The notes beneath the pieces are model-generated. The model ran no database searches. It was not told the origin of the DNA and saw only the letters and a program-made list of their open reading frames with translations. Of a stretch of 64,000 nt of DNA, positions 7,737 to 28,459 are shown in pieces (position 1 is the stretch's first letter; each line of letters opens with the position of its first letter). Source of the DNA: Candidatus Latescibacterota bacterium (lineage in GTDB: Bacteria; Latescibacterota; UBA2968; GCA-2709665); the NCBI GenBank assembly GCA_963667175.2, contig CAXXXF010000006.1, positions 576,001-640,000 on the forward strand, in the 5' to 3' direction. A program made the translations under genes and the position numbers.

Positions 7737-7987
7737 GTAAATAAGCGTGCAACGACCTGGATGGAAACAAACTTCCTGGAGTCGTACTGTACACGAAGGT
7801 TTCGAGGCGGGTTCAATCCCAACCCTGGCAGCCCGTTGAAAAAGCCCATCCGGACTGCCAATGGAACCGGAGCGTGCTGTGGCGGATTGTTTCCCGACGA
7901 TCCACCACTGGTGGAATCGGGCGAGGGGAAGCGGACGAAGAAGGCGTGGAAGGAGTGGCTAAACGGCCGGGGAGTGTCGGAACGGGA

Positions 7988-8236: not shown

Positions 8237-8396
8237 GCCAGACTTCTCCAGTGGTGGTTGCTGGAAAATTATACAGGTCCTCAATTCTTGTCAAGGGCAA
8301 ACATTAATCTTGCGCGACGGTTCTCGGGCGTGGAACGTCAAATACTCTTAAAAATCGCGATCAGTAACCCAAACCTTACGCCATCTCCGGACGCAG

Positions 8397-8425
8397 GTAG
8401 GGGCAGGTTTGAAACCTGCCCCTAC
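8397..8425. repeat. REP-like palindrome with GTAG foot
   Basis: gtaggggcaggtttgaaacctgcccctac. Confidence 0.8.
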
Positions 8426-8524
8426 AATTGGGAGTCTGCCTAACCATAATACAATGACCTGGATAAACATTCCGAATGGTACGGCCGAAGTTTGGCGGGA
8501 GATCAGGAAGCGGGTGCAAAAGAC

Positions 8525-9723: not shown

Positions 9724-9737
9724 AATGAGAAGATACC

Positions 9738-12028: not shown

Positions 12029-12152
12029 GGGGGTGACAGGATGATGAGAAAGCGGCGCGACGGAAGGACTCGAAAGGCGTCAGTGGCGGGCGTTCGGACT
12101 CAGTATCCAACTTTAGTACGAATTTAACGTCTTTGAGACGGGATTTGTGCCG

Positions 12153-13658
12153 TCACGCGCTAACGCCGTACTTTCTCATCCAGTTCGTGAACGTCTGGTA
12201 GCTGGGAAGCCCCACGAGCCGGGCGGCTCGCGATTTGTTTCCTCCTGTCTCTTCCAGCGCCCGCGCAAGGTAGTGCCGCGCGACCGAGGCCAGCAGGGAT
12301 TGGAGGCTAAGGCCATCGCCGAGGGGGCGTTCAAGTATCTTGGCGTCGACCGAACTTACCGCGGGTAGAAGCGCTTCTTTCACGTCTCTAGCATCTATGG
12401 CGGGGCCGGGCGTCCAAAGCGCGGCGCGATGCAGGGTATTCAGCAATTCGCGGACATTACCCGGCCATGGGTGGGCCAGGAGGAAATTTCTTGCGCCTGG
12501 AGAGAGTCTCTTGTGTTCGAAACCCGGCTGATCGGCATTTTCGTCGTTGACCTGCTCGAGCAATCGGTCCACAAGAAGGTTCAGGTCACCCGTTCGATCC
12601 CGGAGAGCAGGCAGCTTCAAATCCGCCACGGCCAGGCGATAGAAGAGATCCTCCCGGAATCTTCCCGTTGCGACCTCTCCCGCCAGGCTCCTATTCGTCG
12701 CGGCGATGATCCTCACGTCGACCTCGCGATGGGCCGTCGCGCCGACGGGCAGAACCATTCCATCTTGCAGGATACGAAGAAACTTTACCTGTGAGGACGG
12801 GGCAAGTTCGCCGACCTCGTCAAGGAACAGGGTTCCCTTGTTGGCTGCCTCGAAATATCCGATCCTGGCTGCGTCCGCACCCGTGAAGGCACCCTTCTCG
12901 TGGCCAAATAGCTCGGATTCCGCCAATTCGGCCGGTATCGCCCCGCAGTTGACCGCCATGAAAGGGTGATCCCGGCGAAGACTCGCCCGATGGATCGCCC
13001 TCGCAAGCAGTTCCTTTCCCGTACCGGACTCGCCCTGTATGAGCACAGGCACAGACCGCGGCGCCACACGTCGGGCTCTCGCAATTACGCGCGCCATGGC
13101 GTCGCTCTGGTAGATGATATCGGCGAATTCCGGCACCTCGGGTGGAAGTCCGGCGGTCGCCTTCTCAAGACGCTCGTCGGGACCCCTGAGGAGGTTGGGG
13201 ATAAACTCGGCCGAGATATCAAACGGGACGGAGACCGTACGAACGCCATGTTTTGCTGACGACTCAATCAGCTCAGCGGGAAAACGCGTTTTTGCAAGGA
13301 GAATCCAGACGGCCGCCATGGCCGGGGTGCCGGGACTCAGGTGAAAGGTCAGGTCAGCATCATCACCGTGATCGCCAAGCGCCGCCGACACGACCCGAAC
13401 CGCGGCCTCGTAGATCTCGGCAAACTCAGTCGGTCCGGATAACGGCTCGCGGCGAACCGTTATCTCGGCCCGAGATCGCGATCGTAGCCACTCAAGAAAC
13501 GTCGCTACCTCGTCCTCAGGATAGTCGCTCAGGAGTACGGCAGCGTCGTACGAATGCGCGTCAAGCGCCTGGGCGACCGGCCCGATGCCCGCGTCCGCCT
13601 CATCACCTGGCGCGCGTAGATCCGCATGGCCGATCCAGCTGATCAGAATATTGTTCAT
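12153..13658 (-). CDS. Sigma54-dependent activator with N-terminal RtcR/CARF-like domain
   Basis: N-terminal ILISWIG...D and FHLSPGTPAM (CARF/RtcR-like); GESGTGKE, GAFTGA, LFLDEV, WPGNVREL; C-terminal Fis HTH. Confidence 0.9.
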   Translation of the reverse strand: MNNILISWIGHADLRAPGDEADAGIGPVAQALDAHSYDAAVLLSDYPEDEVATFLEWLRSRSRAEITVRREPLSGPTEFAEIYEAAVRVVSAALGDHGDDADLTFHLSPGTPAMAAVWILLAKTRFPAELIESSAKHGVRTVSVPFDISAEFIPNLLRGPDERLEKATAGLPPEVPEFADIIYQSDAMARVIARARRVAPRSVPVLIQGESGTGKELLARAIHRASLRRDHPFMAVNCGAIPAELAESELFGHEKGAFTGADAARIGYFEAANKGTLFLDEVGELAPSSQVKFLRILQDGMVLPVGATAHREVDVRIIAATNRSLAGEVATGRFREDLFYRLAVADLKLPALRDRTGDLNLLVDRLLEQVNDENADQPGFEHKRLSPGARNFLLAHPWPGNVRELLNTLHRAALWTPGPAIDARDVKEALLPAVSSVDAKILERPLGDGLSLQSLLASVARHYLARALEETGGNKSRAARLVGLPSYQTFTNWMRKYGVSA

Positions 13659-13668
13659 GAATAGTCAA

Positions 13669-13705
13669 TATACAAGAAATATTGTTATATCATAATATTT
13701 CTTGT
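13669..13705. promoter_or_regulatory. Double operator box upstream of the activator gene
   Basis: acaagaaatatt-N10-aatatttcttgt perfect inverted repeat = two A(C/T)AA-N6-TTGT boxes; 27/37 identical to 26821-26857. Confidence 0.65.
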
Positions 13706-13929
13706 TCTTGTGGAGAAGAGTAATTTTGTTCCAACTTCAAGTAGCGTAGCTCTATCCAATCACATTAGAGCACGCGTTGCAAGCAAGCGCGAGTTGTCGA
13801 GTGGGAGTTTGCGTGGCAGGCGTCACCGCAACTCCAGATAGAACCCATCAGCGTTACAATTCTTAAGTTTTGCAGTCTATTATAATACCGACGTGCCGGG
13901 AACTCCGCTATTCGTGATCGACTTGGATT

Positions 13930-14739
13930 TTATTCTGGTTTCGTCCCGACAGCGCCGAGGACGTGATTGGGTAGATGTTCGATCTTCGTATCTACCTCTC
14001 CAGAAAGGAGATAATCGAGAGGCATATCACCGTGCCCAAACGCCCATAGAAAGAGTTCGGCTCCCAATGCCGAAGGTTGACAAATGATACCGTCGCCAGG
14101 GACAGCGCTTGCTAACTCCTGCAGAGATTTTTTGTCACCAAACTGCCATCGGTTTTCAATGAGATTATCCGAAAAAAGGCCATGCCATATGTGCGTCATA
14201 ATCTGTGGATTACTCCATTCGGCCCGCGTGAATCCCATTGACTCAGTGTAATTTTGGTATGGAAGGTACACCTCCATTTCAGCTCGATTTTCAGATAGAC
14301 CAAACTGCTTTCCCTTATCGGAGAAGAGGTGCGCAACCGTCGCATAAAGGAGATAGTGCGTTCTGACTTGATACGCCGAAAGTTCATCAACAATCTTGAC
14401 TAGCCTGGCACCGCGGTCATCACGGCCAACCTCGGTTCTTGAAGAAGCTAATACCCCACCAAAATACTCCAACGCAACGGGATCATCAGCGTATGAGCCT
14501 TCATTTACAATTCCCTTTAACACCTTTGGTGGTACCCGACCGGGAGATTCGATCCTATCGCCAAGTTTTCCGGCAGCATTTGAAAAGATGTAACGGACAT
14601 TCTCAATTCGGCGCTGTGCAAATGACTTCAGTTCGCCGCCCAAATAATCTGCTGTAGGTCCGAGAAGCTTATTGGTAAGATCCTTCCCCAGATAGGCAGC
14701 AATTACACTTACGCCGACTGTAGTAATTGGTTCCGACAT
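13930..14739 (-). CDS. Abi-alpha/DUF4393-like protein
   Basis: LLGPTADYLG...VPPKVLKGIVNEGSYADD...YFGGVLASS...VKIVDELS pattern recalled for this family; lower GC. Confidence 0.55.
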   Translation of the reverse strand: MSEPITTVGVSVIAAYLGKDLTNKLLGPTADYLGGELKSFAQRRIENVRYIFSNAAGKLGDRIESPGRVPPKVLKGIVNEGSYADDPVALEYFGGVLASSRTEVGRDDRGARLVKIVDELSAYQVRTHYLLYATVAHLFSDKGKQFGLSENRAEMEVYLPYQNYTESMGFTRAEWSNPQIMTHIWHGLFSDNLIENRWQFGDKKSLQELASAVPGDGIICQPSALGAELFLWAFGHGDMPLDYLLSGEVDTKIEHLPNHVLGAVGTKPE

Positions 14740-14988
14740 GAGCGACTCCAGAATATTCACCGCAATGAAATTCTGCAAAGTACAACGCGGAAGATCGGTA
14801 GTAATCGTTAATTTGCCACGAATCGAGAATGGCGACTACAATCGTCTCGATACGATTTCGAACGTCCACAAAACCCGTCGGCGCAAGGTATTCCCTTTAC
14901 TATATCGATGGAGCGCCTCAAGTTCGCTTCGCGCACACTACTGTCATACGACGCTGTGTCATTGAAACATCCCAAGTTTGCGCGAAGA

Positions 14989-16590
14989 CTAAGGTCCTTT
15001 GTTGGGTTCTTCGTCTTCGACAGTTGCAGCATCGCTGGGCGCCGCTAGATCCCGCGCAAGGCTCTCGCATAGAGCGATGGCAGAGAGACAAAACGACGCT
15101 GCGAACGATGTTGACACGGTGATCCCTTGCCTATGCTGCCCAAAGTCACCAACAGATTGAATGTGGTCTGCGAGCAAATAGGTGGGTTTGGTCACGAAAC
15201 TTGCAACCGGGACGTTGTCCTCCGTGCCCGTGATGAGACGGAGAATGCTACACTGCTGCCCGCGTCGCTGAGGAAGAACGTCGAACTTTACGCCCACGAA
15301 CTTCCATTCTTGAGGAATAGACTCGCTGGATGGTAATTCGGCCTCCCAGATCAGATCCAGCGCATGGTTCGCGATGCTCCGAGCCCAAGTCGTGGATTGG
15401 GTCGGTTCAGGGTGCAGATCACGGATTGCCTTCTTCACGTAACCTAGAAAAATTGGATCCGACCCAGATACCTGATCAACACGGAGTTGGAGGAGGTCTC
15501 GAATGTTGTCATTAAATCGCTTTGCGTCACCAAATAGCCGCTTCAGATTCTCCACTTCGCTCGCTTGCTCTTGCGCATACTGACGCATAAAGCGACACGA
15601 CGATCTAAGCTTTCTCCCTGACGAAACAGCGAAGCCACGCTGCTTAAGGACCCGCATTCTCCCGTCCGGTATTTCGGATTGTGGAACGTCACGATTGGCG
15701 AGTTCTGCCAAGTCGGACCGAATCTCAACGTCGCAACCATCCCATAGAGCGTCCAGTAACCCATGTCTTTCTTCCAAAGTGGTCATTGCAACGTCGTCCA
15801 CGTGCGGTTTCGAAAGCGACGCCTCTTCGGGGGCTTCCAATAGTAGCCGCTCTGCAAGAGCAGCTGATAACGTCGGGACGCCCCCTGTCCAATTGGCGAA
15901 TTCCTTTCTGGCTGAGCCGTCAAGCTCGACGCCTCGCGATTCGAATGGCTTGAGGAAACCATCCCAGTCGTGTTCCTCGAAGCAACCGACATGCAGCGGC
16001 GTGTCGTAGAATATTTCCCAGAAATCCGACGTCCGGGACTCTTCGGTCTTGCAAAGCTCCCGGAGCCTGCTCCGGCTTCCCGTCACAACGCGGAGGCTGC
16101 TCATCTGGCAGAGCGTTCGCAGATTGTCCCATAGGTTTCTCGTTATGCGGCCTTCGGCGAGAAGGCGGTCGAACCCGTCGAGTACGGCTAGAATACGAAC
16201 TCCGCCGGTTTGCATTTCGCTAAAAACGAGATGTAGAAGATCGTGGAGGTCCTCGCCCTCCAAGTCCAAGTAATCTGCGAATTCAGGCTCTACCTTCTGC
16301 AGAACAATTTTGATGTGTTCCGTGAAACGTCGTCGGAACTCATCATCGGTCACCGGTGTGCCATGTCTGAGATCCCAATACAGCGACGTAGAGAAGTGCT
16401 CGCTTGGGCGCGCGAATTGCGTGGCAAGGTGATTCAGGAGGACGGACTTTCCAAACAAGGCAGGGCCGATGACGGACACGTGATCGGGGTTCGACTTGCT
16501 CAAGTGTCGGCATAACTCTTCAAATAGGCGTTCACGGCCGAGCATTGATGGGACATCAACGCCGAGGACTTGATAGGGAATGTCGCTCAT
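14989..16590 (-). CDS. STAND/AAA-like ATPase with degenerate Walker B and helical C-terminal (HEPN/DUF4145-like?) domain
   Basis: MLGRE, Walker A GPALFGKS, Walker B VLDGFD, WTGGVP; ATGA overlap with upstream gene. Confidence 0.75.
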   Translation of the reverse strand: MSDIPYQVLGVDVPSMLGRERLFEELCRHLSKSNPDHVSVIGPALFGKSVLLNHLATQFARPSEHFSTSLYWDLRHGTPVTDDEFRRRFTEHIKIVLQKVEPEFADYLDLEGEDLHDLLHLVFSEMQTGGVRILAVLDGFDRLLAEGRITRNLWDNLRTLCQMSSLRVVTGSRSRLRELCKTEESRTSDFWEIFYDTPLHVGCFEEHDWDGFLKPFESRGVELDGSARKEFANWTGGVPTLSAALAERLLLEAPEEASLSKPHVDDVAMTTLEERHGLLDALWDGCDVEIRSDLAELANRDVPQSEIPDGRMRVLKQRGFAVSSGRKLRSSCRFMRQYAQEQASEVENLKRLFGDAKRFNDNIRDLLQLRVDQVSGSDPIFLGYVKKAIRDLHPEPTQSTTWARSIANHALDLIWEAELPSSESIPQEWKFVGVKFDVLPQRRGQQCSILRLITGTEDNVPVASFVTKPTYLLADHIQSVGDFGQHRQGITVSTSFAASFCLSAIALCESLARDLAAPSDAATVEDEEPNKGP

Positions 16591-19500
16591 AGCTCATCCT
16601 CCGTCTTCTTGGAGCCGAAGCCCCGTCCAAGTCCAGCGCCGTAGCCATCCCCGTCTGAGAATCCGCCACCGTCGCCCTCGCCACGTCCGTAGCCATCGAC
16701 GATATCCGATTCTCCACGCTCCCGGACCGCCTGCCGGCGCTGATACTCGAAGTCGACGTTGTGTCCTATCCAGTTCGCCATCAAAGGAACCGCAAGCACG
16801 TAAGCAGAGCCTCGTGGCGACTCCCGGAGTTCAAGCAGTTCGAGTTCTCGCAGAAACTCGAGATCATCTCCCAGGCTCTCTTCACGCGGGATGGCAACGC
16901 CGCTCTCCTCGAGCTTCAGCTCAAGCAGGCTCAGCGTGATGGGATCCGGTCCATCCTCGAGTTTTCGACACAGCGCAAGAATAAAGCGCCTGCGCTCTGT
17001 GCGAGCGTAACCCCAGAGCGTGCGAAAGTGTTCGTTGTCCTTCGTCATATCTTCAGCACACGATTCTGCGGCGCCTACGGTCACCGTTCGTTCTTCGGTA
17101 TGGACGGCACGCTCGAATATCCGGTTGCACAGAGACTGGATCAAAAAGGGTTGTTGCGAACACAGGTCTACCACGCGGTCCCGCGCGTCGGGCACGTACG
17201 TGAGCCGCCCCTCCACCGGCCTTGTCACGAGCAGGCGGGCGTCCTCCAGCCGGATTTTGCTCACGGGGATCCGGTGACCGAACCCGAACAGCGCCGACCA
17301 GTATTCTTCCCGCAGTCTCTTGAGACGACGCGAGCCGGTCAGTATGGCTGAGAGATCCGGATACGCGTGCAGCATGTAGCGGATGTTCTCGGGTACCTGC
17401 GGACTTGTGATCCCCGAGTCGATGCCCTCCTGGAGTTTGTCGAACTCATCCAGCATCAGCAGAAGACGCCGCGGGCTGGCAGCCTCAAGAACCGCCTGTA
17501 TGTACAGCTCGAAGGCTTCGAATGGTCGCGGCCCGGCAAACGCGGTTGACAACGCCTTCGTGAACGCCACCTTGAAACGCTTGCTCGTGTCCGGGGGATC
17601 CATTTCCGGCAAACACACCCGGAGGCCCGCGTCGTCCATCGCCCACCCGACGTCGCGCGCCAGGAGTCTGAAGACCTCGTTGGTTTCCAGTCCGCGTTTG
17701 CTCTTGTGGCCCTGGCCGCCCTGGAGGGAGCAGTTCACGACGATCCAGCCCGGAAGCGCGTCGGGATCCTGAAGGTGTTTGAGAATCGACGTCTTTCCCG
17801 TCCGGCGGTTGCCTTCCAGAAGAATGACGTTCGCCCGGTCGCTTGTTGAGAATTGGCGCCGGATCCTATCGATGATATCCTGCCGGCCGTAGAACATCTC
17901 CTTTCGATCAATGGGGCTGCCCACGATGTACGGGCTTGCTCCGATATCGGGGACTTGGACGGCTTCGGAGGTGGAACGCACGTCTACCGCGAGCGGGAGT
18001 TCACCGGACACAGGCCGGCCGTCCATGCGTTCGGCTCGCCATCGGAGCATGAACGGGTAGAGACCGGTTGCGACGTCCGCCGGAATTCGCGCCGTAAAGC
18101 TGAACGGTCCATTCTCGGCAAGATAATCGACACGCCCCTCGCCAATCGACGGAAACGTCGACGCCCGGACGTTTCGCAGTGCAAGCGGCGAATGGTTCAT
18201 TAAACGGACCCGAACCTCGTTTTCCGCCCCCGCTACGACCGCGTCCGGTTCAATGCCCGGCGCCAATGTGACGTCATCCAATATTGCGTCCAACTCGGCC
18301 CGAACCAGCCGGGAGATCCTCCTGGTGAACGTTATCGCATGAGCGAATGTCTGCAGCAGGTTCTTTCTGACTGAAGGATCAGCGGAACTGCCCGAACTCC
18401 CCCACTCTCGTGTCGCATGTGCACCTGCCAAATGGGCATTTCCTATGCCTAAGATAACCGAATGGACTTTCTCAAGACGGTTCCAGGCTCCGTCTAGGAG
18501 CGCCATGCGCCCCGATCCGGGCGGCACGTGGTTCAGACCATGCAGTGACTTCAAGGCTTCCGCGAGATCCTTCAGCCATCTGTTAAATTGACTCACGTCG
18601 ACAATACACGAGCGAACGACCTGTTTTCGGAGCGACGAGGCGGCGTGAGCAATGCGTTCCAGGAGCTTGACCCGGTCCTCGGCCCGTACCGGTCTCCACA
18701 GCCTCCGTAGTTCGGGAGATCCATTCAGCCATGACCCAACCGGGTCTTTGCTGTTTGTGACCAGGATGCGTACGAGCGCGGCAAAGGGATCTTCTCTTTC
18801 GTCACCCATCTGCTTTAATAGTTGTTCCTGTATCGAAACCTGCGGCGCCGGTACGCGAAGGTTTTGTAGCGTTCGAGCAGGGAGATGCCGGATCGTTTCG
18901 CCTCGGGCGTGACCACGGATCCACTGTTGATATGCATCAGACGCAAGGACGCTCTTCAGATAAACCGGGGAGATTGATTTCCCGGGGCGTATCACGGTGA
19001 GACTCCTCGTCGCCACGGCGTCGACAATGCCGCTCTGCTGGGATACGACCGCCAACGTTCCGACGTTGCCGGACGTGGTGATGAGAACGTCGCCCGCGCG
19101 CAACCGGTGCTTTGACCGCACTCGCCTGGTACAGTTCTTCGTCAGGAAGAGAGACGGAGATTGTACTCCGTTGCGATTCACGTCCGCTGCGCGCACAAGG
19201 CCGGCGAATACCGATGGATCGTTCCGTCGCGAGGTGGTACCAGACTTGTCGTACGATACACCTGTAAAGATATCAGCCACCTCGTTGAGTGGGTGTACCG
19301 GGACCCCGGCGTCGCTCCCGAGAACCCGAAGGGAAATTGACAGGATTTTCTCATCGGTTCGCTTTGCAATGAGATCACCGCCCCTGTCGGCGAGTTCTTT
19401 GATGGGGGTCTCCCAGAGGTCCTCAATCGGGTGTTTCTGTTGGAGGTCGTCTGGTTCACCGGTCCGGAATTCCGCCGTGATCGCGCGCGCCGCCTCGACG

Positions 19501-20699
19501 GCCATGTCGCGGCTGAGCTCGTCCTCCGGTCGAACAGACGGCGAATCTTCGATCCGCATGAACCGAACGGCCTCCTTCGCTTTTTCGCGGCGGAAGAGTG
19601 CCAGGCTCATTTTAATCCCCGTGACTGGAAGGAAGGCCCCGTCCGGAAGCGACACCACGCCTTCCACACAGTAATCGGTGAGGAGTTCCTTGCGGACCTT
19701 CTCGTCGGGACCCGTCCGATAGAGAGCGCCATCAGGAAGCGCGACGACGGCGCGACCGCCCGGGCGAAGCGAAGCCATCGCGTGCTGGAGAAACAGCGTC
19801 TCGATGTGCGTTGATGGAACCGGGAAATGGGTTGCGCTCTGCGCCCGCGCGTGTCGGCCCCATGGCGGTACTGCCACGACGCAGTCGAATCCTTCCGAGG
19901 ACCGCTCTCCGGCCGGGGGCCGATCCAGGGCGTCGCCGAGTTCGAGACCGGGTTGATCCATGCCCGCCAGGACGACGCGCGCAAGCCCGATGACGTGCGC
20001 GTACGGACTGATTTCCACCCCGTACACGCTTTGTTGAAGCGACTCGGGCATCCGCGTTGCGTTTTCGAGAAGTCGGCCGGCCACCGTGGCGAGCAGCCCA
20101 CCGGCCCCGAAGCACGGATCGTAGACGCGCTCTCCCGGACGAGGATCCAGAAGTTCAGCCATCAGCTCAACCACGCGTTTGGGCGTGGTGTGGTCTCCCG
20201 GGATCTCGCCCGTTTCAGCGGCGTTTGCCACAAGGGCCCCAAGCGCGTTCCCTGCCGAATGCCTGCCGGTATCGGATTCCAAATCGAAAGGCCTGCCCCA
20301 CTCCAGAAGTGTCTCGATCACCTCAGGAGATTCCCGGACCAGGTTTTCCACGATGGGCGCAAGCAGCTTCAAGTACTTACCGGGACCTCGATCGGGCGCG
20401 TTACGCAACGCAGGCAGAACCCCCCCGCCAAGCGCGTCCACGAGTTCGCCGCCGCGAAGATCGCGCCAGGAAGACCAATGCAGACCGCGAGGTAGGGCAG
20501 ACGGACAGTCGTGACTCTTGAGAGCGTCCGCGGGTTCCTGTTCGGCATCCTTGCGCTCGGCCCAACGCAGCAGAAACAGGGCGGCCGCAAAGGACGCGAT
20601 GGCCGACTCGGGCTGACGGTCGCCAGCCTCCTGCCCGGCGATCTCATCGAGGCGGGTCCGGAGTTCGGACACGCGAGATGTGAGTTCAGATTGATTCAT
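16587..20699 (-). CDS. Fusion of HsdM-like N6-methyltransferase, HsdS-like TRD and STAND ATPase (~1370 aa)
   Basis: HTTP, YDPCFGAGGLL (motif I), FDCVVAVPPW (motif IV), TRD GDVLIT...G.TIRHL, SPYIVGSP..FYGR, GNRRTGKT, MLDEFD; likely start MNQSEL overlaps PLD stop (ATGA). Confidence 0.85.
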   Translation of the reverse strand: MNQSELTSRVSELRTRLDEIAGQEAGDRQPESAIASFAAALFLLRWAERKDAEQEPADALKSHDCPSALPRGLHWSSWRDLRGGELVDALGGGVLPALRNAPDRGPGKYLKLLAPIVENLVRESPEVIETLLEWGRPFDLESDTGRHSAGNALGALVANAAETGEIPGDHTTPKRVVELMAELLDPRPGERVYDPCFGAGGLLATVAGRLLENATRMPESLQQSVYGVEISPYAHVIGLARVVLAGMDQPGLELGDALDRPPAGERSSEGFDCVVAVPPWGRHARAQSATHFPVPSTHIETLFLQHAMASLRPGGRAVVALPDGALYRTGPDEKVRKELLTDYCVEGVVSLPDGAFLPVTGIKMSLALFRREKAKEAVRFMRIEDSPSVRPEDELSRDMAVEAARAITAEFRTGEPDDLQQKHPIEDLWETPIKELADRGGDLIAKRTDEKILSISLRVLGSDAGVPVHPLNEVADIFTGVSYDKSGTTSRRNDPSVFAGLVRAADVNRNGVQSPSLFLTKNCTRRVRSKHRLRAGDVLITTSGNVGTLAVVSQQSGIVDAVATRSLTVIRPGKSISPVYLKSVLASDAYQQWIRGHARGETIRHLPARTLQNLRVPAPQVSIQEQLLKQMGDEREDPFAALVRILVTNSKDPVGSWLNGSPELRRLWRPVRAEDRVKLLERIAHAASSLRKQVVRSCIVDVSQFNRWLKDLAEALKSLHGLNHVPPGSGRMALLDGAWNRLEKVHSVILGIGNAHLAGAHATREWGSSGSSADPSVRKNLLQTFAHAITFTRRISRLVRAELDAILDDVTLAPGIEPDAVVAGAENEVRVRLMNHSPLALRNVRASTFPSIGEGRVDYLAENGPFSFTARIPADVATGLYPFMLRWRAERMDGRPVSGELPLAVDVRSTSEAVQVPDIGASPYIVGSPIDRKEMFYGRQDIIDRIRRQFSTSDRANVILLEGNRRTGKTSILKHLQDPDALPGWIVVNCSLQGGQGHKSKRGLETNEVFRLLARDVGWAMDDAGLRVCLPEMDPPDTSKRFKVAFTKALSTAFAGPRPFEAFELYIQAVLEAASPRRLLLMLDEFDKLQEGIDSGITSPQVPENIRYMLHAYPDLSAILTGSRRLKRLREEYWSALFGFGHRIPVSKIRLEDARLLVTRPVEGRLTYVPDARDRVVDLCSQQPFLIQSLCNRIFERAVHTEERTVTVGAAESCAEDMTKDNEHFRTLWGYARTERRRFILALCRKLEDGPDPITLSLLELKLEESGVAIPREESLGDDLEFLRELELLELRESPRGSAYVLAVPLMANWIGHNVDFEYQRRQAVRERGESDIVDGYGRGEGDGGGFSDGDGYGAGLGRGFGSKKTEDEL

Positions 20700-22300
20700 C
20701 TGTCGACGCCCTCCCTTGCGGTCATTCGGACAACGATCGAGGCCGCGCCAGCTTCCTCGGCAACCCGGCGGGCGACCTGGATCTCTTCCGGAGATCGGAC
20801 CGCCACCACGAGCTTCCCGTCCGGTTCCTTGAATACGGGAGGCTCGTACGGGGCTGGCTTCGTCTTCTTGCCGGCCGCTGTCCGCGAGGCTGCCTTCGCC
20901 CTGGAATCTCTTGCACCGGTCCGCTCGGGCATCTCCGGCCCGCCGCCAGCAGTCCGCATGATTTCCTTCGCCTTCGGGTGCAGATCCGGTGCTCGAACGA
21001 GCCTTCGGCACTCAAGCTCGTGAGCGGGTTGCGGCAGTCCATTGATACGCGGGAGATCCGGGGCTGGCGCTTTCAGTACGTGCGCGGACGCGGCAGTTAC
21101 GGATCCAAGATCTACCGTGAGCCGGGGCTTGACCTCGAGGTCGATCAGATTTCCTCCGTGCCAGACGCGCACGTCTCCGGCCACCTCTCCCAACGCAGGC
21201 GCCGGAAGGAGTTCCCACGCCGCCTGACTCGACCATCGTTCGAGGCGGATCCGAAGCTCGTCCGCCCGCTCGCCTTCAAGCCGCAAGCCCAATTCGAAGC
21301 CGCCGTCGAGCCCATGCTTCTCCAGATTCGCCGACATGACCAGTCCCCTGCCCGAGTCGGACCACAACGCCTTGGCGTGCAGCCACTTGAAGCCGAGCAC
21401 CCGGGCGCCCGCCTCCGCGAGCGCGGCGAGGGCGGGCATGGCGCGGAGACGGGTGCGCGCCAGCACCGTGAGCGAAACGCCCTCGCGGGCACGCGCACAG
21501 AGACGCTCGACCACCGGATGGCCGGCGTCCCATCCGTAGCTCGAAACGATGAGTTCCCCGGAGGCGCCGTCGATGAGATCGACGGCCTCCTCACGCAGTT
21601 GAGTGACTGAAGACGTGGTTGCCAGGACATGCGGGGACGGCGCCGGATGATCGACGCGGCCGAGGGGCTTCACCGCCCGAAAATTTCCAAGTTCCACCAT
21701 TTCGTGCTCTGCGCCTTCCCATATTGCCCATCGAACGAGCTCTGCAGCTTCTTTCACTTCCTTCGGGGTCAGCTCGACGGCCAACTCCTCGTTCCGCTCC
21801 AGCGCTTCGCGAGTGAGGTTCGCCGTCAGCAATAGCCCCGCAGGGCGCTCGTCGGGGTCGACCAGTACCAGCTTGGCGTGGAAGTGCGGCGCCGAACGGA
21901 TGAGCGCCCAACCGCCAAGGCGACTCAGCACGTCGTTGTGTTCCGCGAGCACACGCCGTTCAAACTCCCCGTCCCCGGGTTCGTCACCAAGACGGGCTTC
22001 CGAGGCGAGCATGACGTACACCCGCACGCCCCTCCCGGCGGCTTCGAGGATCGCGGCTTCGACGTCCCGGTCGGCCAGCAGGAAGCTGGAGACGACGACT
22101 TTCTTTCTTGCGGAGGCCAGGAGTTTGGCGATTCGATCCTTCAGCTCCCCGCCCTTTCCCGATATATGGACTTCCCTGCCCGTTTCCGGCTGGCGGATTG
22201 TCTCCCTCTGGCGGGAACTCCACGTGGGTGGCAGTCGATAGTTGCGCTGGTTAATAATAGATGTGACCTGCTTTGTCCAGTTCTTCATGGTGATCTCCAT
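20696..22300 (-). CDS. Phospholipase D-family nuclease with two HKD motifs
   Basis: HAKLVLVD...TANL and HAKALWSD...SANL; TAATG coupling at 22298-22302 (alternative start 22288). Confidence 0.88.
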   Translation of the reverse strand: MEITMKNWTKQVTSIINQRNYRLPPTWSSRQRETIRQPETGREVHISGKGGELKDRIAKLLASARKKVVVSSFLLADRDVEAAILEAAGRGVRVYVMLASEARLGDEPGDGEFERRVLAEHNDVLSRLGGWALIRSAPHFHAKLVLVDPDERPAGLLLTANLTREALERNEELAVELTPKEVKEAAELVRWAIWEGAEHEMVELGNFRAVKPLGRVDHPAPSPHVLATTSSVTQLREEAVDLIDGASGELIVSSYGWDAGHPVVERLCARAREGVSLTVLARTRLRAMPALAALAEAGARVLGFKWLHAKALWSDSGRGLVMSANLEKHGLDGGFELGLRLEGERADELRIRLERWSSQAAWELLPAPALGEVAGDVRVWHGGNLIDLEVKPRLTVDLGSVTAASAHVLKAPAPDLPRINGLPQPAHELECRRLVRAPDLHPKAKEIMRTAGGGPEMPERTGARDSRAKAASRTAAGKKTKPAPYEPPVFKEPDGKLVVAVRSPEEIQVARRVAEEAGAASIVVRMTAREGVDR

Positions 22301-23412
22301 TACAGTCTCCAATCTTCGGCGGCGGCGAGACGCCAGAACAAAGGATCGGGACGTTCTGGCGTCCCGTTGCAGACCTCGTCGAAAAGTTCCGTTCGAGTTG
22401 GGAGTTCTATCTCGTACTGTTCGAAGGGGTCAGCCGCCTCACCGCGCCATGCTGAATAGCGCTCAGAGGTCGCATAGTCCCGGATCCGTGCGCGCAGGCG
22501 CCACTTCGCCCACGACTGTGCCTCGGCCTCAGACGGGGCGGTGATCGGTACGTCCGGAACGTTAAGCGGCTCGAACTTTCCGTAGAAGCCCAGGTACGGT
22601 GACTCGAATTCCAGGACGCGGGACATGGCCTCCCGCTCGGGGTCGTTGGTGTCGTCGAAGCTCACGCACAGCACCTGCCGTTTTTCGTCCCACTGCTCCA
22701 ATAGACCCCCGTTTTCGAGCAACGTGCGCCATACCCGGTCGGGCGACGTGGATGGCGCCTCCAGTTCGGTCGCGACCTTCTTCCCTTCCAGGATTCCGGT
22801 GAGCTGCAATCGCCCGTCGCCGAAGTTCCAGCGGAGACGAAGGAATCCATTGGCGTCAACTGCCTCGGCTTTGTCCTCAAGGTCATCAACGCGAATCACG
22901 GCGCCGCGTCCGGCGGCCGGCTTGATGGGCGTCCCCTCGACGTTTCGTATCCAAGTCGGTAGTGCGTCGTGTCGGCGCTCTTCCGTGCGCTGCCGCTTGT
23001 TGCGGAGCTCGTCGTGCGCGGTGGGCTCCTTCCACGGTTCGATTCGCAAGATGGGCGACGGCAGCAGAGGGTCGACACTCGCCCAGATCGTCCAGGTTCC
23101 GCACTCGGGAACGAGCACCTTTTCAGTGTCGATGGCCGTCTCCCCGGCTTCGGTGAGTTCGAAAGCGCGACCGCGCTTCTCGAGAAGCTTGTAGGCGACT
23201 CCAATATCCAGGAGCCGCTCAGCGACGACGCGCCGCGACCGGGACTCGAAGAGCAGATGCTCGGCCACGTCGCGCGCGCCCGTTCCGCCGTTCTCGCGAA
23301 TCCGCAGGAGGACGGGCATGAGTTCGGGCCGTTTCTCAGCTTTGGCGACCTGCCCGACGACGCGCCAGCACCTGACTTCCACGGGTCGTTCCAGAATGAT
23401 GTTCCTGTTCAT
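22300..23412 (-). CDS. Hypothetical protein with N-terminal winged-helix-like segment
   Basis: ARDVAEHLL...VAERLLDIG...FELTEAG pattern; coupled at both ends. Confidence 0.7.
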   Translation of the reverse strand: MNRNIILERPVEVRCWRVVGQVAKAEKRPELMPVLLRIRENGGTGARDVAEHLLFESRSRRVVAERLLDIGVAYKLLEKRGRAFELTEAGETAIDTEKVLVPECGTWTIWASVDPLLPSPILRIEPWKEPTAHDELRNKRQRTEERRHDALPTWIRNVEGTPIKPAAGRGAVIRVDDLEDKAEAVDANGFLRLRWNFGDGRLQLTGILEGKKVATELEAPSTSPDRVWRTLLENGGLLEQWDEKRQVLCVSFDDTNDPEREAMSRVLEFESPYLGFYGKFEPLNVPDVPITAPSEAEAQSWAKWRLRARIRDYATSERYSAWRGEAADPFEQYEIELPTRTELFDEVCNGTPERPDPLFWRLAAAEDWRL

Positions 23413-26045
23413 TGTTGCCTCCGGTTGATGTCCTTCCCCCACCGTTTGCTCTCAGCCAATGCCTTCAGCAAGGTACCCCTTGCCCGACGCATCGCCTGCC
23501 GGTCGCCAATGACGACGCGCTGATAGCGCGCTCTGGTCAGGGCGACGTTCAGGCGGTTCGGGCTCTCCAGGAAGCTCGTCGGGTGGGGCCGGGCGAAACT
23601 GATCAGCACGACGTCGGCCTCGTGCCCCTGGAAGCGGTCAACGGTGCACAGCTCGATGCGGAGGTAGGGCCGTTCCTTCTGACCCCGTGTAAAGTGGCGC
23701 ATTGCGTGGCGCTGCCCGGTCCATTTATGGAGATAGCCCCGCACCTTCCGTTCCTGTCCCCGGTAGAAGGTCAGGACGGCCGCCTCCCAGGTACGGTCGT
23801 CATTCAGCGGGTTCGCACGCGCCCACGCATCGAAGTGGCGGAGTTCTTTTACAACCGATCGAGCCTCCCTTTGGTTGCAGTTGAGGCGCCGGTCGAAGGC
23901 GCCACGAACGTCGCGCCAGACGGCATGGTAGGCGTAGCGGGGGTAGCTCCACGCGCGTTCGTCCTTCATCGATTCCGGGGTTTGGAGCGCCTTGCCGCCG
24001 TAGACGTGTTTATGGGATAACGCCGCAATCTCGGGATGCATGCGGTGCTGCGTGCTCAGGAGCACGTGACGCGGATCGAGCACGAAATCCGGCAGACCGT
24101 CCGACAGCGCGCTTCCGGTGCGCTGGTTCCCGTTGCGCTCGAACCCACGATGAAGCGATTCGAGAACGGACGGAAGGGCGACGCGGCGTACGCGATCGAT
24201 CTCCAGCCAGACCTCTTCCGGATCTGCGCCGGTCTCAGCGTTGGGGAGTAACTCTTTCACTTCCTGACGCAGGCGTTCCGCGGTGGTGGTCCGGTTGTCA
24301 CTCGAATCGTCCGAATCCTCTGCGAAACGCTGCTCGTACAACCTCGCGAGGCGCCAACCGACTTCGGACGCCCACTCCGGCGCCTCTTCGCCGTCTTGTC
24401 CGGCAAGGCGAAGCCACGCATCCGCGCGACGATGCGCGACGTGCAGAGTGTTCTCCGGCCCGCGCACCATCGCGAGGTCAAGCGGCAGTTCGTCCACCCT
24501 CCGCTCCAGCGCGGTAGCTGTACCGATAGCGACGTCCGCGGTCGAGAGCCCGTGGTCATCGAGGTCCGCGTCGGCAAGCGTTACGTCCCGAGCGGCGCAC
24601 TGCTCGCGGTACCCCTGGCGGGTACGTTCGTCCTCTGCGACGACGGCGGCGGTGCGCCGTTTATGGCGGCTGGGACGCCCCGCGTTGAAGGCGTCAATGC
24701 AGGCGTCCCGGATCCCGGGGTCGCGAAGACACGTCTCAATGTTCACCGCCATCGCCTCGTCATCGACGTACGGGGAGAGTTGCTTCGGGTCGCCGACGAT
24801 GATCCAGCGCTTCGCCAGCAACGCGGGGACCAGGAATTCCTGGAATGGCGTCTTGGAGGCTTCGTCGACGATGAGCACGTCGAAGGTGGTGCTGGCGTGG
24901 CCGCCCGACTTGCCCCGGTGCTGTTTAATGTCCGGATGCTGGAGGATCCCGATTGTGGTCCCGCACACGAGGTTGGCGGCGTCCAGAACCATGCGCTCGA
25001 TAACCGAGGGGCCCGGGCGCAAGGCTTCAAGAAAGGCTTCCTGCGACGGCGTGAGAGACCTTCGCCCCTGAAGCTCCCGGAGCAGGCGCTCCCTCTCGGT
25101 TCGAACGAAACGGTCGAACTGCCATGGGCGCGCCTTCTCGGAGACGTTCCGCCGGTCGCCGATGCGGACCGGGATCACCAGGTCGCGGTGTGGGTTGGAC
25201 TCGTCCATCAGGCGCTCCAGCACGTTGTCGACCGCGACATGCGTCGACGCCGAGAGAAGCACCCGCTTCCCGCGCTTCGCAAGCTGGAGCACCAGTTCGC
25301 CGATCGCCGTCGTCTTTCCCGAACCGGGCGGCCCTTCGAGAAACGCGAAATCCGGCGTTCCGAGGGCCTGCTCAACGAATTCGCGTTGCTCGCCGGTTCC
25401 GGGACGACTCTGGTCCGTCAGCACCATCCAGTCCGGGTCATCAATGCACTCCGCATCGACAATCGGCCATAAAGCGCTGTCGCGATCTTCGAAGAGCCGC
25501 AGCAAAGGGCGGTGAAAGGACGAAGGGGTGTTCTGAAGCGCCTGTAGAGCATCGATCTGGCACTTGATTTGCCACGTGTTGGGCCGGAGCAGGAGCTCGG
25601 TCAGGTCCGGAACTCGCTCGAGCAACAGTTGGTTGGTATTGGGGTCCCGGTCGATTACCGCAATCTTGTGCTGCGGACCGAAGCCCAGTCGGTCGTTACG
25701 ACGGGCATCCGGCCCTTCGGTTTCGGCGGAGGGCTCGGCCTCGTAGACCTCCTTCACGTTTTCGTCCAGGAAGGTCCGAAATGTGGCCTCCGGCTCATCG
25801 CGACGGCCCGGCGGCTCGGTCAGCTCGATCCAAGTTCCATCGGTCTCTGCCCGCCCGGCGCCGTTGCCGCCGTTGGCCGGCGGTTCGCCGGGGCGCCACG
25901 CGAGCCGTTTCACGGCAGCGTCGCTGTTCAGGTATTCCCGAGTCCGCCTCAGGAATTCGTAGAATATCCGGAGCCCATAGAAGGTGTTCTTCATCAGGAC
26001 GTCCGGGCGGTGAACCCCGAGGTTCCAGTAGTGCAGTAGCGCCAT
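23409..26045 (-). CDS. UPF1/DNA2-like SF1B helicase
   Basis: GPPGSGKTT, VDEAS, VGDPKQL, QHRMHP, TVDRFQGHE, NRLNVALTRAR. Confidence 0.92.
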   Translation of the reverse strand: MALLHYWNLGVHRPDVLMKNTFYGLRIFYEFLRRTREYLNSDAAVKRLAWRPGEPPANGGNGAGRAETDGTWIELTEPPGRRDEPEATFRTFLDENVKEVYEAEPSAETEGPDARRNDRLGFGPQHKIAVIDRDPNTNQLLLERVPDLTELLLRPNTWQIKCQIDALQALQNTPSSFHRPLLRLFEDRDSALWPIVDAECIDDPDWMVLTDQSRPGTGEQREFVEQALGTPDFAFLEGPPGSGKTTAIGELVLQLAKRGKRVLLSASTHVAVDNVLERLMDESNPHRDLVIPVRIGDRRNVSEKARPWQFDRFVRTERERLLRELQGRRSLTPSQEAFLEALRPGPSVIERMVLDAANLVCGTTIGILQHPDIKQHRGKSGGHASTTFDVLIVDEASKTPFQEFLVPALLAKRWIIVGDPKQLSPYVDDEAMAVNIETCLRDPGIRDACIDAFNAGRPSRHKRRTAAVVAEDERTRQGYREQCAARDVTLADADLDDHGLSTADVAIGTATALERRVDELPLDLAMVRGPENTLHVAHRRADAWLRLAGQDGEEAPEWASEVGWRLARLYEQRFAEDSDDSSDNRTTTAERLRQEVKELLPNAETGADPEEVWLEIDRVRRVALPSVLESLHRGFERNGNQRTGSALSDGLPDFVLDPRHVLLSTQHRMHPEIAALSHKHVYGGKALQTPESMKDERAWSYPRYAYHAVWRDVRGAFDRRLNCNQREARSVVKELRHFDAWARANPLNDDRTWEAAVLTFYRGQERKVRGYLHKWTGQRHAMRHFTRGQKERPYLRIELCTVDRFQGHEADVVLISFARPHPTSFLESPNRLNVALTRARYQRVVIGDRQAMRRARGTLLKALAESKRWGKDINRRQQ

Positions 26046-26092
26046 CTTCTTCTTACGTCCTTTCCTTTGCTATTGAGATTATGAGACGTCAA

Positions 26093-26419
26093 TCAGCCCA
26101 TCGGCCGCCGGTTACGCCGACGACCTTGCGGGCGCAGCCCTCGGAAGTCTCGATTCCGGTACGTGGTCAGGACGTCTCCTTCTGAACTGCATACGACGTG
26201 AATTCCCTCGAAGTCAGCCAATTCGATGCCTTTACGCAGGAACCTCGTGACTTCCTTGCGGCCGATGACGTAGATTTTCGCGCCGCGCACGTAGACCACA
26301 CGACCATATTTTATCACCGTCGAAAGGGCAGTTTCGGAAATCCTCCGGGCCATCATCCGCATACGGGCATGGGTCGTGATGACATGGCTCCGGCGCTTGT
26401 CTGCACAATCGTAGCTCAT
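26093..26419 (-). CDS. DUF4258-like small basic protein (putative toxin-fold RNase)
   Basis: ITTHARMRMMARRIS...VIKYG...VLTTYRN; AAGGAG RBS. Confidence 0.7.
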   Translation of the reverse strand: MSYDCADKRRSHVITTHARMRMMARRISETALSTVIKYGRVVYVRGAKIYVIGRKEVTRFLRKGIELADFEGIHVVCSSEGDVLTTYRNRDFRGLRPQGRRRNRRPMG

Positions 26420-26582
26420 CAGTTCGCTCCTTTCGTCGGCGGTCAATTCCGCTTGACTCCGGATCTGATCAGGCCACTTCCGTGCCAACGTGACTCGATC
26501 CGTTCCCGGCAAGCTCAATCTTCATTCCTGCTGATTGCTCCATCCAAATTGCATATAACTTTATGGTGGCATTTGGGGGAAG

Positions 26583-26599
26583 CGCAAACCGCGTGCCAA
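26583..26599 (-). promoter_or_regulatory. Sigma54 (-24/-12) promoter
   Basis: Minus strand TTGGCACGCGGTTTGCG = TGGCACG-N4-TTGC, exact GG-N10-GC spacing, pointing into the operon. Confidence 0.8.
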
Positions 26600-26820
26600 T
26601 TTTCGCTGAACCCCGTCCTTCCCGGCCAGTCTTCATGTTCCCATGGCTCGATACCACGATCAAGCGATCATGGGGAAATTCTATAATACGTTGTCTTTAA
26701 TCAATTTAAGCAATAATCTCCCAGGTCCTCCTTTCAATGTCGAAGACCGGATCGGCGGGGCGGACACAAGGATCCGACCGGACGATCCACCTGATCGATG
26801 TCCTTGTCAAGGACCACAAG

Positions 26821-26857
26821 TATACAATATATTTTGTGTAATTATAAGAATTATTGT
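26821..26857. promoter_or_regulatory. Candidate enhancer (UAS) for the sigma54 activator
   Basis: acaatatattttgt-N6-ataagaattattgt; same architecture as 13669-13705; ~220 bp upstream of the -24 element. Confidence 0.6.
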
Positions 26858-27608: not shown

Positions 27609-28454
27609 CTACGTGACAAGATCAAACGGCAAGTCTGCAATATCTCGGAGACGATTGCCGATAATCATCGTATCCAAAGAATCCTGGACGGCTTCGTTTC
27701 GACTCTCTTTGGTGACCTTCACAAGTTCATTAAGGCAGAAGTGGTAGACACAATCGATATCGCCGGTTCCCAATGCGAGAGACGCGATTCGGGTTGGCAT
27801 TGGTTCGGCCGTCACCACGGCGATATGGGGGGTGTGCCCTTTACGGTTACGTATCAGGTTCAAGCCTTCCGTTCGGGCATTCTGCGACCGATCACTTCGA
27901 AGAGTCAATTTGCACGAAATGCTCGCGTGCAGTATTGGAGACGCTTCTTCCTGATTTGTCCGACGTAGCGGCGTCAAGTACGGGATGCCACCCTCGTGTA
28001 CGATTACCCAATGCTTGTTTATCGCCTCGTCTGCAACAGGTGTGCGCGCAACGATGACCTCGGGCTTGACGACATAATCACCAAGGGCCGTCTGAGCCAC
28101 CTTATTGGCTTGGATCAGTTCATTCAGGGTAGCCAAATGTCGGTATTGCACGAATTCCGATATATCGCCGTGCACAGAATAAATCCAATCCGCTGGACGA
28201 AGATGTTCGAGGACTTTCATGGTTGATTTAATGAATTCCCGTACTGCCGCTTCAAACTTGCTCCCGGCGGTTTGACCGCTTATTCTGGTGCTCCCAAGCG
28301 AATAGCCAAATTCCTCAATGATCCCGCGCGCCAACGAACAACTGAGATTGCTGCTGGTGTCGGCAATGCTCGGGGTTCGATCTCTTTTCAAGAATATCGC
28401 TCCAGAACAGACTTGCCGTTGAAATTGCTCGCGCAGTTTTGCGATTTCAGCCAT
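27609..28454 (-). CDS. Type II restriction endonuclease, NgoMIV family
   Basis: GQTAGSKFE, LHASISCKLTLRSDRSQNARTEGLNLIRNRKG, VTAEPMPTRIASLALGTGDIDCVYH. Confidence 0.9.
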   Translation of the reverse strand: MAEIAKLREQFQRQVCSGAIFLKRDRTPSIADTSSNLSCSLARGIIEEFGYSLGSTRISGQTAGSKFEAAVREFIKSTMKVLEHLRPADWIYSVHGDISEFVQYRHLATLNELIQANKVAQTALGDYVVKPEVIVARTPVADEAINKHWVIVHEGGIPYLTPLRRTNQEEASPILHASISCKLTLRSDRSQNARTEGLNLIRNRKGHTPHIAVVTAEPMPTRIASLALGTGDIDCVYHFCLNELVKVTKESRNEAVQDSLDTMIIGNRLRDIADLPFDLVT

Positions 28455-28459
28455 CAGAT

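Follow-up and report, generated by a model that had tools for sequence, protein, structure and literature searches.

Organization of the locus

The stretch analysed here is a 64-kb window from a contig of a Candidatus Latescibacterota bacterium, and the locus in question (12153-26857, read on the minus strand; all coordinates are positions in this window) comprises eight genes. From the promoter onwards they encode a DUF4258 protein, a UPF1-like helicase, a winged-helix protein, a phospholipase D (PLD)-family nuclease, a fusion of a HsdM-like methylase domain with a target recognition domain (TRD) and a STAND NTPase, a partner ATPase, an Abi-alpha-like protein and an RtcR-like CARF activator (Table 1). 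The results presented below make it probable that the locus is an inducible, sigma-54/CARF-switched defence superoperon, a mosaic of two separately conserved cassettes. These are the helicase/winged-helix/PLD trio (cassette A) and the fusion/ATPase pair (cassette B).

All eight minus-strand open reading frames were present (8/8). A sequence-only reading that preceded this analysis had joined five of them by overlapping start and stop codons, and each of the four overlaps was confirmed in the sequence: ATGA at 23412-23409, TAATG at 22302-22298, ATGA at 20699-20696 and ATGA at 16590-16587. It had also noted the absence of HsdR and the lack of a named system with this combination of genes. Both statements hold, as neither ResIII nor HSDR_N matched any of the eight proteins in Pfam, and no Pfam, PADLOC 2.0 or NCBIfam model covers the whole eight-gene set. 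Pfam at E<=10 gave nothing useful on the N-terminus of the helicase, the C-terminus of the PLD protein, the middle region of the fusion and the C-terminus of the ATPase. The GC content changes along the operon, from 63-65% in the trio through 59-60% in the fusion to 51% in the ATPase/Abi region.

Table 1. Genes and regulatory elements of the locus, in order of transcription, with positions in the 64-kb window
Feature	Position	Strand	Remarks
Candidate activator-binding boxes	26760..26825	-	two CTTGTG-containing 9-mers with a palindrome between them
Sigma-54 (-24/-12) promoter TGGCACGCGGTTTGC	26584..26598	-	consensus TGGCAC-N5-TTGC
DUF4258 protein	26093..26419	-	108 aa from ATG 26419; small, toxin-like
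UPF1-like superfamily 1 (SF1) helicase	23409..26045	-	878 aa; AAA_11/AAA_12; without kinase domain
Winged-helix and beta-rich protein	22300..23412	-	370 aa; no family match
PLD-family nuclease	20696..22300	-	534 aa; two HKD motifs
Fusion of HsdM-like domain (catalytically dead by its motifs), one TRD and STAND NTPase	16587..20699	-	1370 aa
ORC/Cdc6-like, STAND-type ATPase	14989..16590	-	533 aa
Abi-alpha-like protein	13930..14739	-	269 aa from ATG 14739
Palindrome with 17-nt arms, ACAAGAAATATTGTTAT/ATCATAATATTTCTTGT	13672..13705	.	just 5' of the activator gene
RtcR-like CARF-AAA+-HTH sigma-54 activator	12153..13658	-	501 aa; subfamily RtcR_PspF2

The helicase/winged-helix/PLD cassette

The helicase matched AAA_11 and AAA_12, both near 1e-30 (Pfam), and its nearest solved relatives in a PDB sequence search were UPF1, IGHMBP2 and NAM7 (near 2e-21). 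The earlier suggestion that the helicase and the PLD protein form the core of a Mokosh system stands in part: the two enzymes are of the right kinds, and the kinase domain is not present. The PADLOC model MkoA (1.1e-82) was covered only at profile positions 532-1081 of 1112, which is its helicase half, no kinase family occurs among the 15 Pfam matches, and the N-terminal 200 aa of the helicase had no Pfam match at E<=10. The PLD protein matched PLDc_2 in two stretches (9.2e-19) and, in PADLOC, DrmC (1.1e-20) and MkoB (8.4e-13). Its translation contains two HxKx4D motifs, HAKLVLVD and HAKALWSD, and the PDB sequence search gave no match to it. The 370-aa protein encoded between the two had no match in Pfam, PADLOC or NCBIfam. 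It was modelled by AlphaFold2 (AF2) with a predicted local distance difference test (pLDDT) score of 89.5, and its proposed winged helix-turn-helix was recovered at the fold level only, as about 70 residues that resemble MarR/PhiH1-type winged helices; the Foldseek comparison of the model with the PDB gave 0 matches at E<=0.001.

The PLD protein served as query in a scan of one genome per species, which yielded 17 trio loci; their hosts are Alpha- and Gammaproteobacteria, Myxococcota, a spirochaete and others. The helicase, the winged-helix protein and the PLD protein were colinear in 17/17 of them, as far as the contig extends, with the winged-helix gene always between the other two, and an RtcR-like gene followed the trio directly in 13 of the 17. 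All six trio-associated regulators that were tested belonged to RtcR_PspF1, not RtcR_PspF2. Promoters of the sigma-54 type were found 50-100 nt 5' of the helicase gene in five trio loci by a strict score, and inspection of the sequence added three more; there was none at this place in the four trio loci without a regulator. A plasmid of Vibrio rumoiensis carries, by its annotation, the same four genes, i.e., helicase, hypothetical protein, PLD-like protein and sigma-54-interacting regulator. Genes for DUF4258, the Abi-like protein, the fusion or the ATPase were present in 0/17 trio loci.

Two further features were observed in trio loci. Inverted repeats of the type GGGT-N8-ACCC, often in two copies, lie 5' of the sigma-54 promoter in loci with RtcR_PspF1 (L012, L015, L016, L017, L013 and L014), and these repeats, which differ from the boxes of the window, are candidate activator sites. 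In another trio locus, L003, a stretch of about 1.6 kb with a 437-aa open reading frame, probably an insertion, interrupts the winged-helix gene (7273-10010).

The methylase-like fusion and its partner ATPase

Residues 1-640 of the fusion correspond to a HsdM-like domain and one HsdS-type TRD. The protein matched N6_Mtase (5.4e-40) and, exactly at the cut-off, AAA_16 (32.6 bits) in Pfam, and MTase_I (2.1e-56) and Specificity_I (2.4e-14) in PADLOC; its C-terminal 731 aa had no match in the PDB sequence search. Active N6-adenine methylases carry (N/D/S)PP(F/Y/W) at motif IV. The fusion of the window has VPPW at this place, as the description of a pseudo-methyltransferase had implied, and N, D or S occurs there in 0/103 full-length homologues (VPPW in 69, HPPW in 12, other variants in 22). 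The AdoMet (S-adenosylmethionine)-binding motif I, DPxFGxGG, is retained. The alignment confirmed that, as far as motifs can tell, the methylase domain is catalytically dead and that this is a trait of the whole family. The TRD is 50-59% identical over 98 homologues, like the remainder of the fusion. The idea that it shares specificity with an adjacent HsdS was rejected: over 40 loci the TRD scored 36.7 bits against the neighbouring HsdS and 35.3 bits against unrelated HsdS proteins, and the cognate ranked first only in one artefactual case. To judge by these comparisons, the behaviour of the TRD is not that of a specificity domain under diversification. Homologues of the fusion are numerous (1114 at E<=0.001 among 8000 candidates scored), and most of the 120 that were listed share its Pfam make-up.

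The partner ATPase matched AAA_16 (2e-06, 28.8 bits) and nSTAND1 (2e-04, 21.6 bits), both below the Pfam cut-off. Its AF2 model reached a pLDDT of 92.3, and in the Foldseek comparison it resembled the archaeal Walker ATPase PAB2304 as well as ORC2, Avs3, CED-4 and NRC, the last four with a probability of 1.0. The Walker A and B motifs are kept in both the fusion and the ATPase. A HEPN motif was considered for the ATPase and rejected, as the Rx4H string in its C-terminal domain is not conserved in an alignment of 46 sequences. The STAND part of the fusion is predicted to bind the ATPase as a heteromer. The modelled complex had an interface score (ipSAE) of 0.78, compared with 0.00 for the best control; 58 of 80 solved complexes attain that mark, as do 2 of 110 mismatched pairs. 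Between the three runs, at least 70% of contacts agreed, and the partners had a pLDDT of at least 85.

The surroundings of the pair were examined in 83 fusion loci, three from genomes of the phylum and 80 from metagenomes. The metagenome scan with the single fusion protein had found no relative, and the 80 loci came from a scan with a four-sequence alignment. The ATPase gene follows the fusion in 80/80 loci with room downstream. On the 5' side, 26 loci have an RtcR_PspF2-like gene followed by HsdR and HsdM, usually with HsdS; the RtcR_PspF2-like gene is immediately adjacent in eight loci and accompanied by two other genes in two. Hsd genes were also found in 16 loci whose contig ends before the position of the regulator and in six with no regulator match, three loci have neither Hsd genes nor a regulator, and 22 were too short for judgement. 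In 34 of 35 loci, a sigma-54 promoter that agrees with the consensus at 9 or more of 10 positions stands behind the gene for RtcR_PspF2, at a distance of up to 260 nt and mostly within 45 nt of the gene end. The trio was found in 0/83 fusion loci. HsdR stands immediately before the fusion, without a separate HsdM or HsdS, in four loci: L081, L093, L094 and a plasmid of Acinetobacter ursingii. Both cassettes have thus been found on plasmids. Judging from gene order, the trio of the window occupies the position, directly 5' of the fusion, that is held elsewhere by HsdR-M-S or by HsdR alone.

Several observations on individual fusion loci can be added. On the Acinetobacter ursingii plasmid (L120, NZ_MH220285.1), the genes for HsdR, the fusion (annotated as 'N-6 DNA methylase') and the ATPase ('ATP-binding protein') overlap. 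This plasmid is without an RtcR-like gene or separate HsdM/HsdS, has a gene with a WYL domain upstream and carries resistance genes as well. In six loci (among L053-L057, L082 and L083), the ATPase gene is followed on the same strand by a gene for an unannotated protein of about 1100-1190 aa and then by one for a DEAD/Helicase_C/MZB protein of about 1500-1640 aa, a pair which by its domains resembles Druantia type III. Other fusion loci have SIR2 (SIR2_2), SAVED, RecD-like or HsdM genes downstream.

The activator, the promoter and the accessory genes

The last gene of the locus was correctly recognised as that of an RtcR/CARF-like activator. It matched Sigma54_activat (2.4e-68) and HTH_8 in Pfam, and in PADLOC its score for RtcR_PspF2 (CARF_AAA_HTH; 7.5e-198) was far better than that for RtcR_PspF1 (1.8e-68); both subfamilies are reportedly defined in the CARF classification of Makarova et al. 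2020. The protein shares 62-71% identity with the regulators that head fusion loci L031-L033, but only about 32% with those that follow other trios, even in the case of the closest one (L010, with a helicase 73% identical to that of the window). Its subfamily and its likeness to the fusion-locus regulators therefore place the activator, as far as sequence comparison goes, with the fusion/ATPase pair.

The consensus sigma-54 promoter described ahead of the first gene was found as TGGCACGCGGTTTGC. The pattern TGGCAC-N5-TTGC has 2 matches in the 64 kb compared with 0.10 expected (2 were reached in 1 of 100 shuffles), and rpoN, the gene for sigma-54, is encoded in the source genome. The reported 'double box' is also real; it lies upstream of the promoter and takes the form of a 9-nt direct repeat, CACAAGGAT and CACAAGTAT, with copies 50 nt apart (26765-26823); a 15-nt palindrome, GTCCTTGACAAGGAC, lies between both copies (26814-26800). 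These boxes are candidate binding sites of the activator. The second perfect match to the promoter pattern, TGGCACTTGATTTGC, lies on the opposite strand within the helicase gene (25558-25572, plus strand) and faces DUF4258; it could be a chance match or an antisense promoter. A scan for terminators and sigma-70 promoters returned fewer sites than shuffled sequences and was uninformative.

Of seven related loci read, six (L032, L034, L035, L033, L036 and L068) have two TCTTGY-like (or TTTTGT) boxes, at a spacing of about 20 nt, in the 45 nt that precede the start codon of RtcR_PspF2, and the sequence at 13672-13705 of the window is a palindromic version of them. Such boxes may be the operator of RtcR_PspF2 itself. 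Right after the stop codon of the activator gene, the sequence CGGCACAAATCCCGT (12138-12152, minus strand) has a -24-like GGCAC and misses the -12 TTGC. Its GGCAC stands at the same offset as the sigma-54 promoter of related loci, and the element may be a vestige of the canonical regulator-first layout.

The first gene was rightly assigned to DUF4258 (Pfam E 3.6e-07; score 30.8 bits, cut-off 25), and its start was corrected. Translation most likely begins at ATG 26419, which has AGGAG upstream and gives a protein of 108 aa; TTG 26518 is less likely. DUF4258 belongs, we assume, to the RelE/BrnT fold group. One other copy, 40% identical, was found downstream of the ATPase in a fusion locus (L079). 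The assignment of the seventh gene to Abi-alpha held only partly. The protein had no hidden Markov model match in Pfam (even at E<=10), PADLOC or NCBIfam, and in a language-model atlas look-up each of the 30 nearest clusters had PF14337 in some of its members (17-41% in the three best clusters), with a best score of 0.98.

A restriction enzyme of the NgoMIV type (Pfam 1.2e-93) and an N4/N6 DNA methylase are encoded directly upstream of the operon (27609-29896, minus strand). With the operon, this restriction-modification (R-M) pair makes up a defence island about 18 kb long, which is flanked by housekeeping genes.

Occurrence of both cassettes together

Each cassette was found in 3 of 167 other genomes of the phylum and was absent from all 14 genomes of the genus, and no other genome of the phylum has the trio and the fusion/ATPase pair together. 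Co-occurrence elsewhere was read from contigs of identical length, a comparison in which gene order is not visible. It covered the 119 other homologue clusters listed for the fusion and those listed for the winged-helix protein. Three pairs of homologues lie on contigs of the same length (390258, 26377 and 11915 nt), and a fourth such length, 12704 nt, appears among the cluster members. A jitter control gave 0.22 expected coincidences and a probability of about 0.001 for at least three. The winged-helix proteins of the three pairs are 81%, 53% and 63% identical to that of the window, and since they have diverged to this extent (53-81%), the combination of cassettes has persisted or spread. Only 3 of the 119 listed fusion homologue clusters match the contig size of a winged-helix homologue. 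The closest homologues of the Abi-like protein (77-82% identical) lie on contigs of the same length as three other fusion homologues (43626, 8308 and 80122 nt; the probability of at least three is about 0.0002), and these contigs are not in the winged-helix list. It follows that the parts recombine in several ways.

The junctions were also found in contigs of other runs, counting only joints with at least 30 letters on either side. Run X2 has contigs, 1-8% divergent from the window, for the promoter, DUF4258, the first part of the helicase, the PLD gene and the fusion, and one of them (record 12, 19975-21397) spans the junction between PLD and fusion. The junction between fusion and ATPase is spanned by a contig of run X1 (record 3, 15839-16724). 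Because of the same-length contigs and the bridging contigs of another run, the mosaic is regarded as a real, recurring, minority arrangement and not as an assembly artefact. One contig of run X7 (depth 3, shorter side 54 letters) joins 16605 to 20624 with 28 other letters between and gives a weak hint of a form without nearly the whole fusion gene.

Interpretation and rival explanations

The reading that we consider probable is an inducible defence superoperon, switched by sigma-54 and a CARF activator and composed of two separately conserved cassettes. According to it, the sigma-54 promoter would drive the operon, and the 3'-encoded RtcR-like CARF activator would most likely turn this promoter on. 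Until an infection or damage signal reaches the CARF domain, the operon would be kept off. The fusion would not methylate, but with its AdoMet-binding motif and TRD kept, it would form together with the partner ATPase an NTP-gated recognition and switch module, and the motor-nuclease cassette, here the helicase and the PLD protein, would degrade nucleic acid. Cassette B would be the core that matches the RtcR_PspF2 activator subfamily, cassette A would fill the slot of HsdR-HsdM-HsdS or of HsdR alone, and the toxin-like DUF4258 gene and the Abi-alpha-like gene would be further add-ons. We infer in this way a defence function, an inducing signal and a coupling between the cassettes. The division of labour proposed from the sequence, in which the fusion senses, the ATPases switch and the helicase and PLD protein act, is a reasonable one and gets some support from the predicted STAND-ATPase complex, which is a model.

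Several points weigh against this interpretation. In 35 of 36 other loci with RtcR_PspF2 the regulator stands upstream of the operon, and in the window it is at the 3' end, so that its link to the promoter at 26598 is a putative one; moreover, CTTGT/ACAAG is only weakly enriched 5' of RtcR_PspF2 genes (1.10 compared with 0.65 per 360 nt). The evidence from identical-length contigs for co-occurrence of the cassettes elsewhere is indirect. Neither the Pfam search nor the structure comparison revealed a recognisable effector domain in the fusion or the ATPase, and at least three loci hold only RtcR_PspF2, the fusion and the ATPase; for these two reasons the pair may act without a motor nuclease, which weakens the idea of a slot. 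Finally, solved structures are rich in AAA+ neighbour interfaces, so the score of the heteromer could partly mirror the general interfaces of solved ORC/Cdc6-type assemblies.

The sequence-only reading had taken the eight genes for one system, and in its strict form this would be a single obligate novel defence system with the fusion as sensor, the two ATPases as switch, and the helicase, PLD and DUF4258 proteins as dedicated effectors. The single promoter, the four start/stop overlaps that link five genes and the lack of a library model covering the set all fit such a view, as do the fusion/winged-helix combination on at least three other contigs and the junction in contigs of another run. 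It does not agree with the conservation patterns, however. The trio and the pair are normally separate, the trio being absent from the fusion loci (0/83) and both genes of the pair, like DUF4258 and the Abi-like gene, from the trio loci (0/17), and elsewhere each cassette has a separate regulator subfamily, PspF1 or PspF2. Only 3 of 119 listed fusion clusters share a same-length contig with a winged-helix homologue, the closest Abi-like homologues pair with the fusion on contigs outside the winged-helix list, and the GC content is heterogeneous. It had been recognised from the start that a failure of the helicase-PLD and methylase-ATPase blocks to co-occur elsewhere would speak against one system. 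This is largely what was found, no genome of the phylum having both, although the same-length contigs and the bridging contig of run X2 suggest that the separation is not complete. We therefore regard a single obligate system as improbable. Somewhat more credible, though still unlikely, is a simple stacking of defence systems (the fusion/ATPase pair, the trio of Mokosh type, a DUF4258 toxin and an Abi-alpha gene) that work independently, are co-transcribed and share only their induction. Each cassette stands alone elsewhere, other fusion loci continue on the same strand with Druantia-III-like, SIR2, SAVED or RecD-like genes, the NgoMIV-type R-M pair adjoins the operon, and superoperons of this kind, led by RtcR, are described in the covered part of Bell et al. 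2024. Stacking would not account for the place of the trio, which is exactly at the HsdR(-M-S) position of at least 26 relatives, nor for the overlap of the PLD gene with the start of the fusion by ATGA, and the combination recurs in diverged copies (winged-helix proteins 53-81% identical). The presence of HsdR directly before the fusion, without HsdM or HsdS, in four loci suggests that the fusion works with a motor nuclease.

A function outside defence appears very improbable. The locus would then be a repair or quality-control operon induced by stress or RNA damage, like rtcBA, whose helicase and PLD protein act on host RNA or DNA. The regulator is indeed related to RtcR (334 bits, below the cut-off of 650), and the nearest solved relatives of the helicase are RNA-surveillance helicases. 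On the other hand, the operon has no homologue of RtcA or RtcB, and R-M genes adjoin it. Its parts are sporadic and apparently horizontally transferred (3/167 per cassette, 0/14 in the same genus, with plasmid-borne copies), and related loci stand amid type I R-M, Druantia-III-like, SIR2 and SAVED genes.

A more far-reaching mechanism may be imagined by analogy with the plant nucleotide-binding leucine-rich repeat (NLR) pairs, and we put it forward as a speculative and rather unlikely one. The fusion and the ATPase would form an 'integrated decoy' sensor/helper pair, in which the dead methylase-specificity core baits those anti-restriction proteins of phages that target type I enzymes, or reads DNA that it is unable to mark; in both cases a hetero-oligomerisation with the ATPase would follow and license the motor nuclease of the operon. 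If this were true, the decoy pair would license HsdR in most genomes and the Mokosh-like helicase and PLD protein here. Independently of the mechanism, the fusion/ATPase pair is possibly an unnamed defence module, which is widespread, always paired and nearly always behind a sigma-54 promoter. A conserved pseudo-enzyme on a STAND switch suggests that DNA or phage restriction inhibitors may be sensed by a methylase without chemistry. The slot 5' of the pair, which can be filled by a Mokosh-like trio as well as by a type I R-M set, would then offer a natural experiment on whether the pair controls a motor nuclease.

Comparison with known systems

Type I Mokosh consists of MkoA, a helicase protein that also carries a serine/threonine kinase domain, and the PLD protein MkoB (Millman et al. 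2022 preprint, as far as covered). The window is similar in having a COG1112/UPF1-like helicase gene and a separate PLD nuclease gene with both HKD motifs intact. It differs in that its helicase is without the kinase domain, only the helicase half of the MkoA profile being matched, in that the trio has a third conserved gene, encoding the winged-helix protein, between helicase and PLD, and in that the trio cassette has its own sigma-54 promoter and CARF activator. The resemblance of the PLD protein to DrmC of DISARM is below the NCBIfam threshold (83.8 bits compared with 133), and DrmA and DrmB had no match in the operon in PADLOC.

The likeness to type I R-M systems resides in the HsdM-like and TRD part of the fusion and in the full HsdR-M-S set found directly upstream of it in most relatives. 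Unlike in those systems, motif IV of the fusion is lost, its single TRD is neither hypervariable nor matched to the adjacent HsdS, and its methylase-like part is joined to a STAND NTPase. The matches to the methylation-associated defence system, MADS, are weak (fusion against mad2 1.5e-26 and mad5 3.2e-15, ATPase against mad8 0.007; PADLOC). They are weaker than those to the generic type I models, the other mad genes are absent, and the NCBIfam equivalog scores lie below their cut-offs (MAD2 76 bits against a cut-off of 720, MAD5 32 against 400). MANTIS/Gao_RL was set aside, since its description, as far as covered, includes an active methyltransferase and a different gene set. With Avs/STAND and ORC/Cdc6 proteins the pair shares the fold of the ATPase, whose model resembles PAB2304, ORC2, Avs3, CED-4 and NRC, and the Walker A/B motifs kept in both proteins. 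Unlike them, the pair is made of two components, has no recognisable nuclease, protease or other effector and no repeat-type sensor, and contains a methylase-like module in place of a sensor or effector. Among the eight proteins, no match to McrBC/CoCoNuT (CnuB/CnuC) was found in Pfam or PADLOC, where no CoCoNuT-specific models were used.

The relation to Rtc RNA repair is confined to the regulator. It scored 334 bits against the cut-off of 650 for RNA_repair_RtcR in NCBIfam, its best PADLOC model is RtcR_PspF2, and Pfam and NCBIfam gave no homologue of RtcA or RtcB in the operon. Neither the fusion/ATPase pair nor the four-gene trio cassette is described in the literature searched, which did not extend to Makarova et al. 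2020 or to the supplementary data of Makarova et al. 2014 and Bell et al. 2024. The pair is likewise not named by any model of Pfam, PADLOC 2.0 or NCBIfam.

Close precedents are the RtcR-led defence superoperons. RtcR-like CARF activators have been linked to R-M systems and predicted to act via sigma-54 (Makarova et al. 2014, in the text covered). Superoperons led by RtcR, with type I R-M and other systems and often with a small RelE/BrnT-like toxin gene in front, have been described by Bell et al. 2024 (eLife), again in the text covered. The texts covered, which are without their supplements, do not mention the fusion/ATPase pair or the trio. In these papers' main lines, as far as they could be compared, the window agrees in its CARF-AAA+-HTH activator, its co-directional string of defence genes and its sigma-54 promoter, and differs in the place of the regulator at the 3' end. 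RtcR-led defence superoperons are therefore already published, and it is the fusion/ATPase pair that appears to be unnamed; the locus adds evidence that CARF-type sigma-54 activators turn on whole defence operons.

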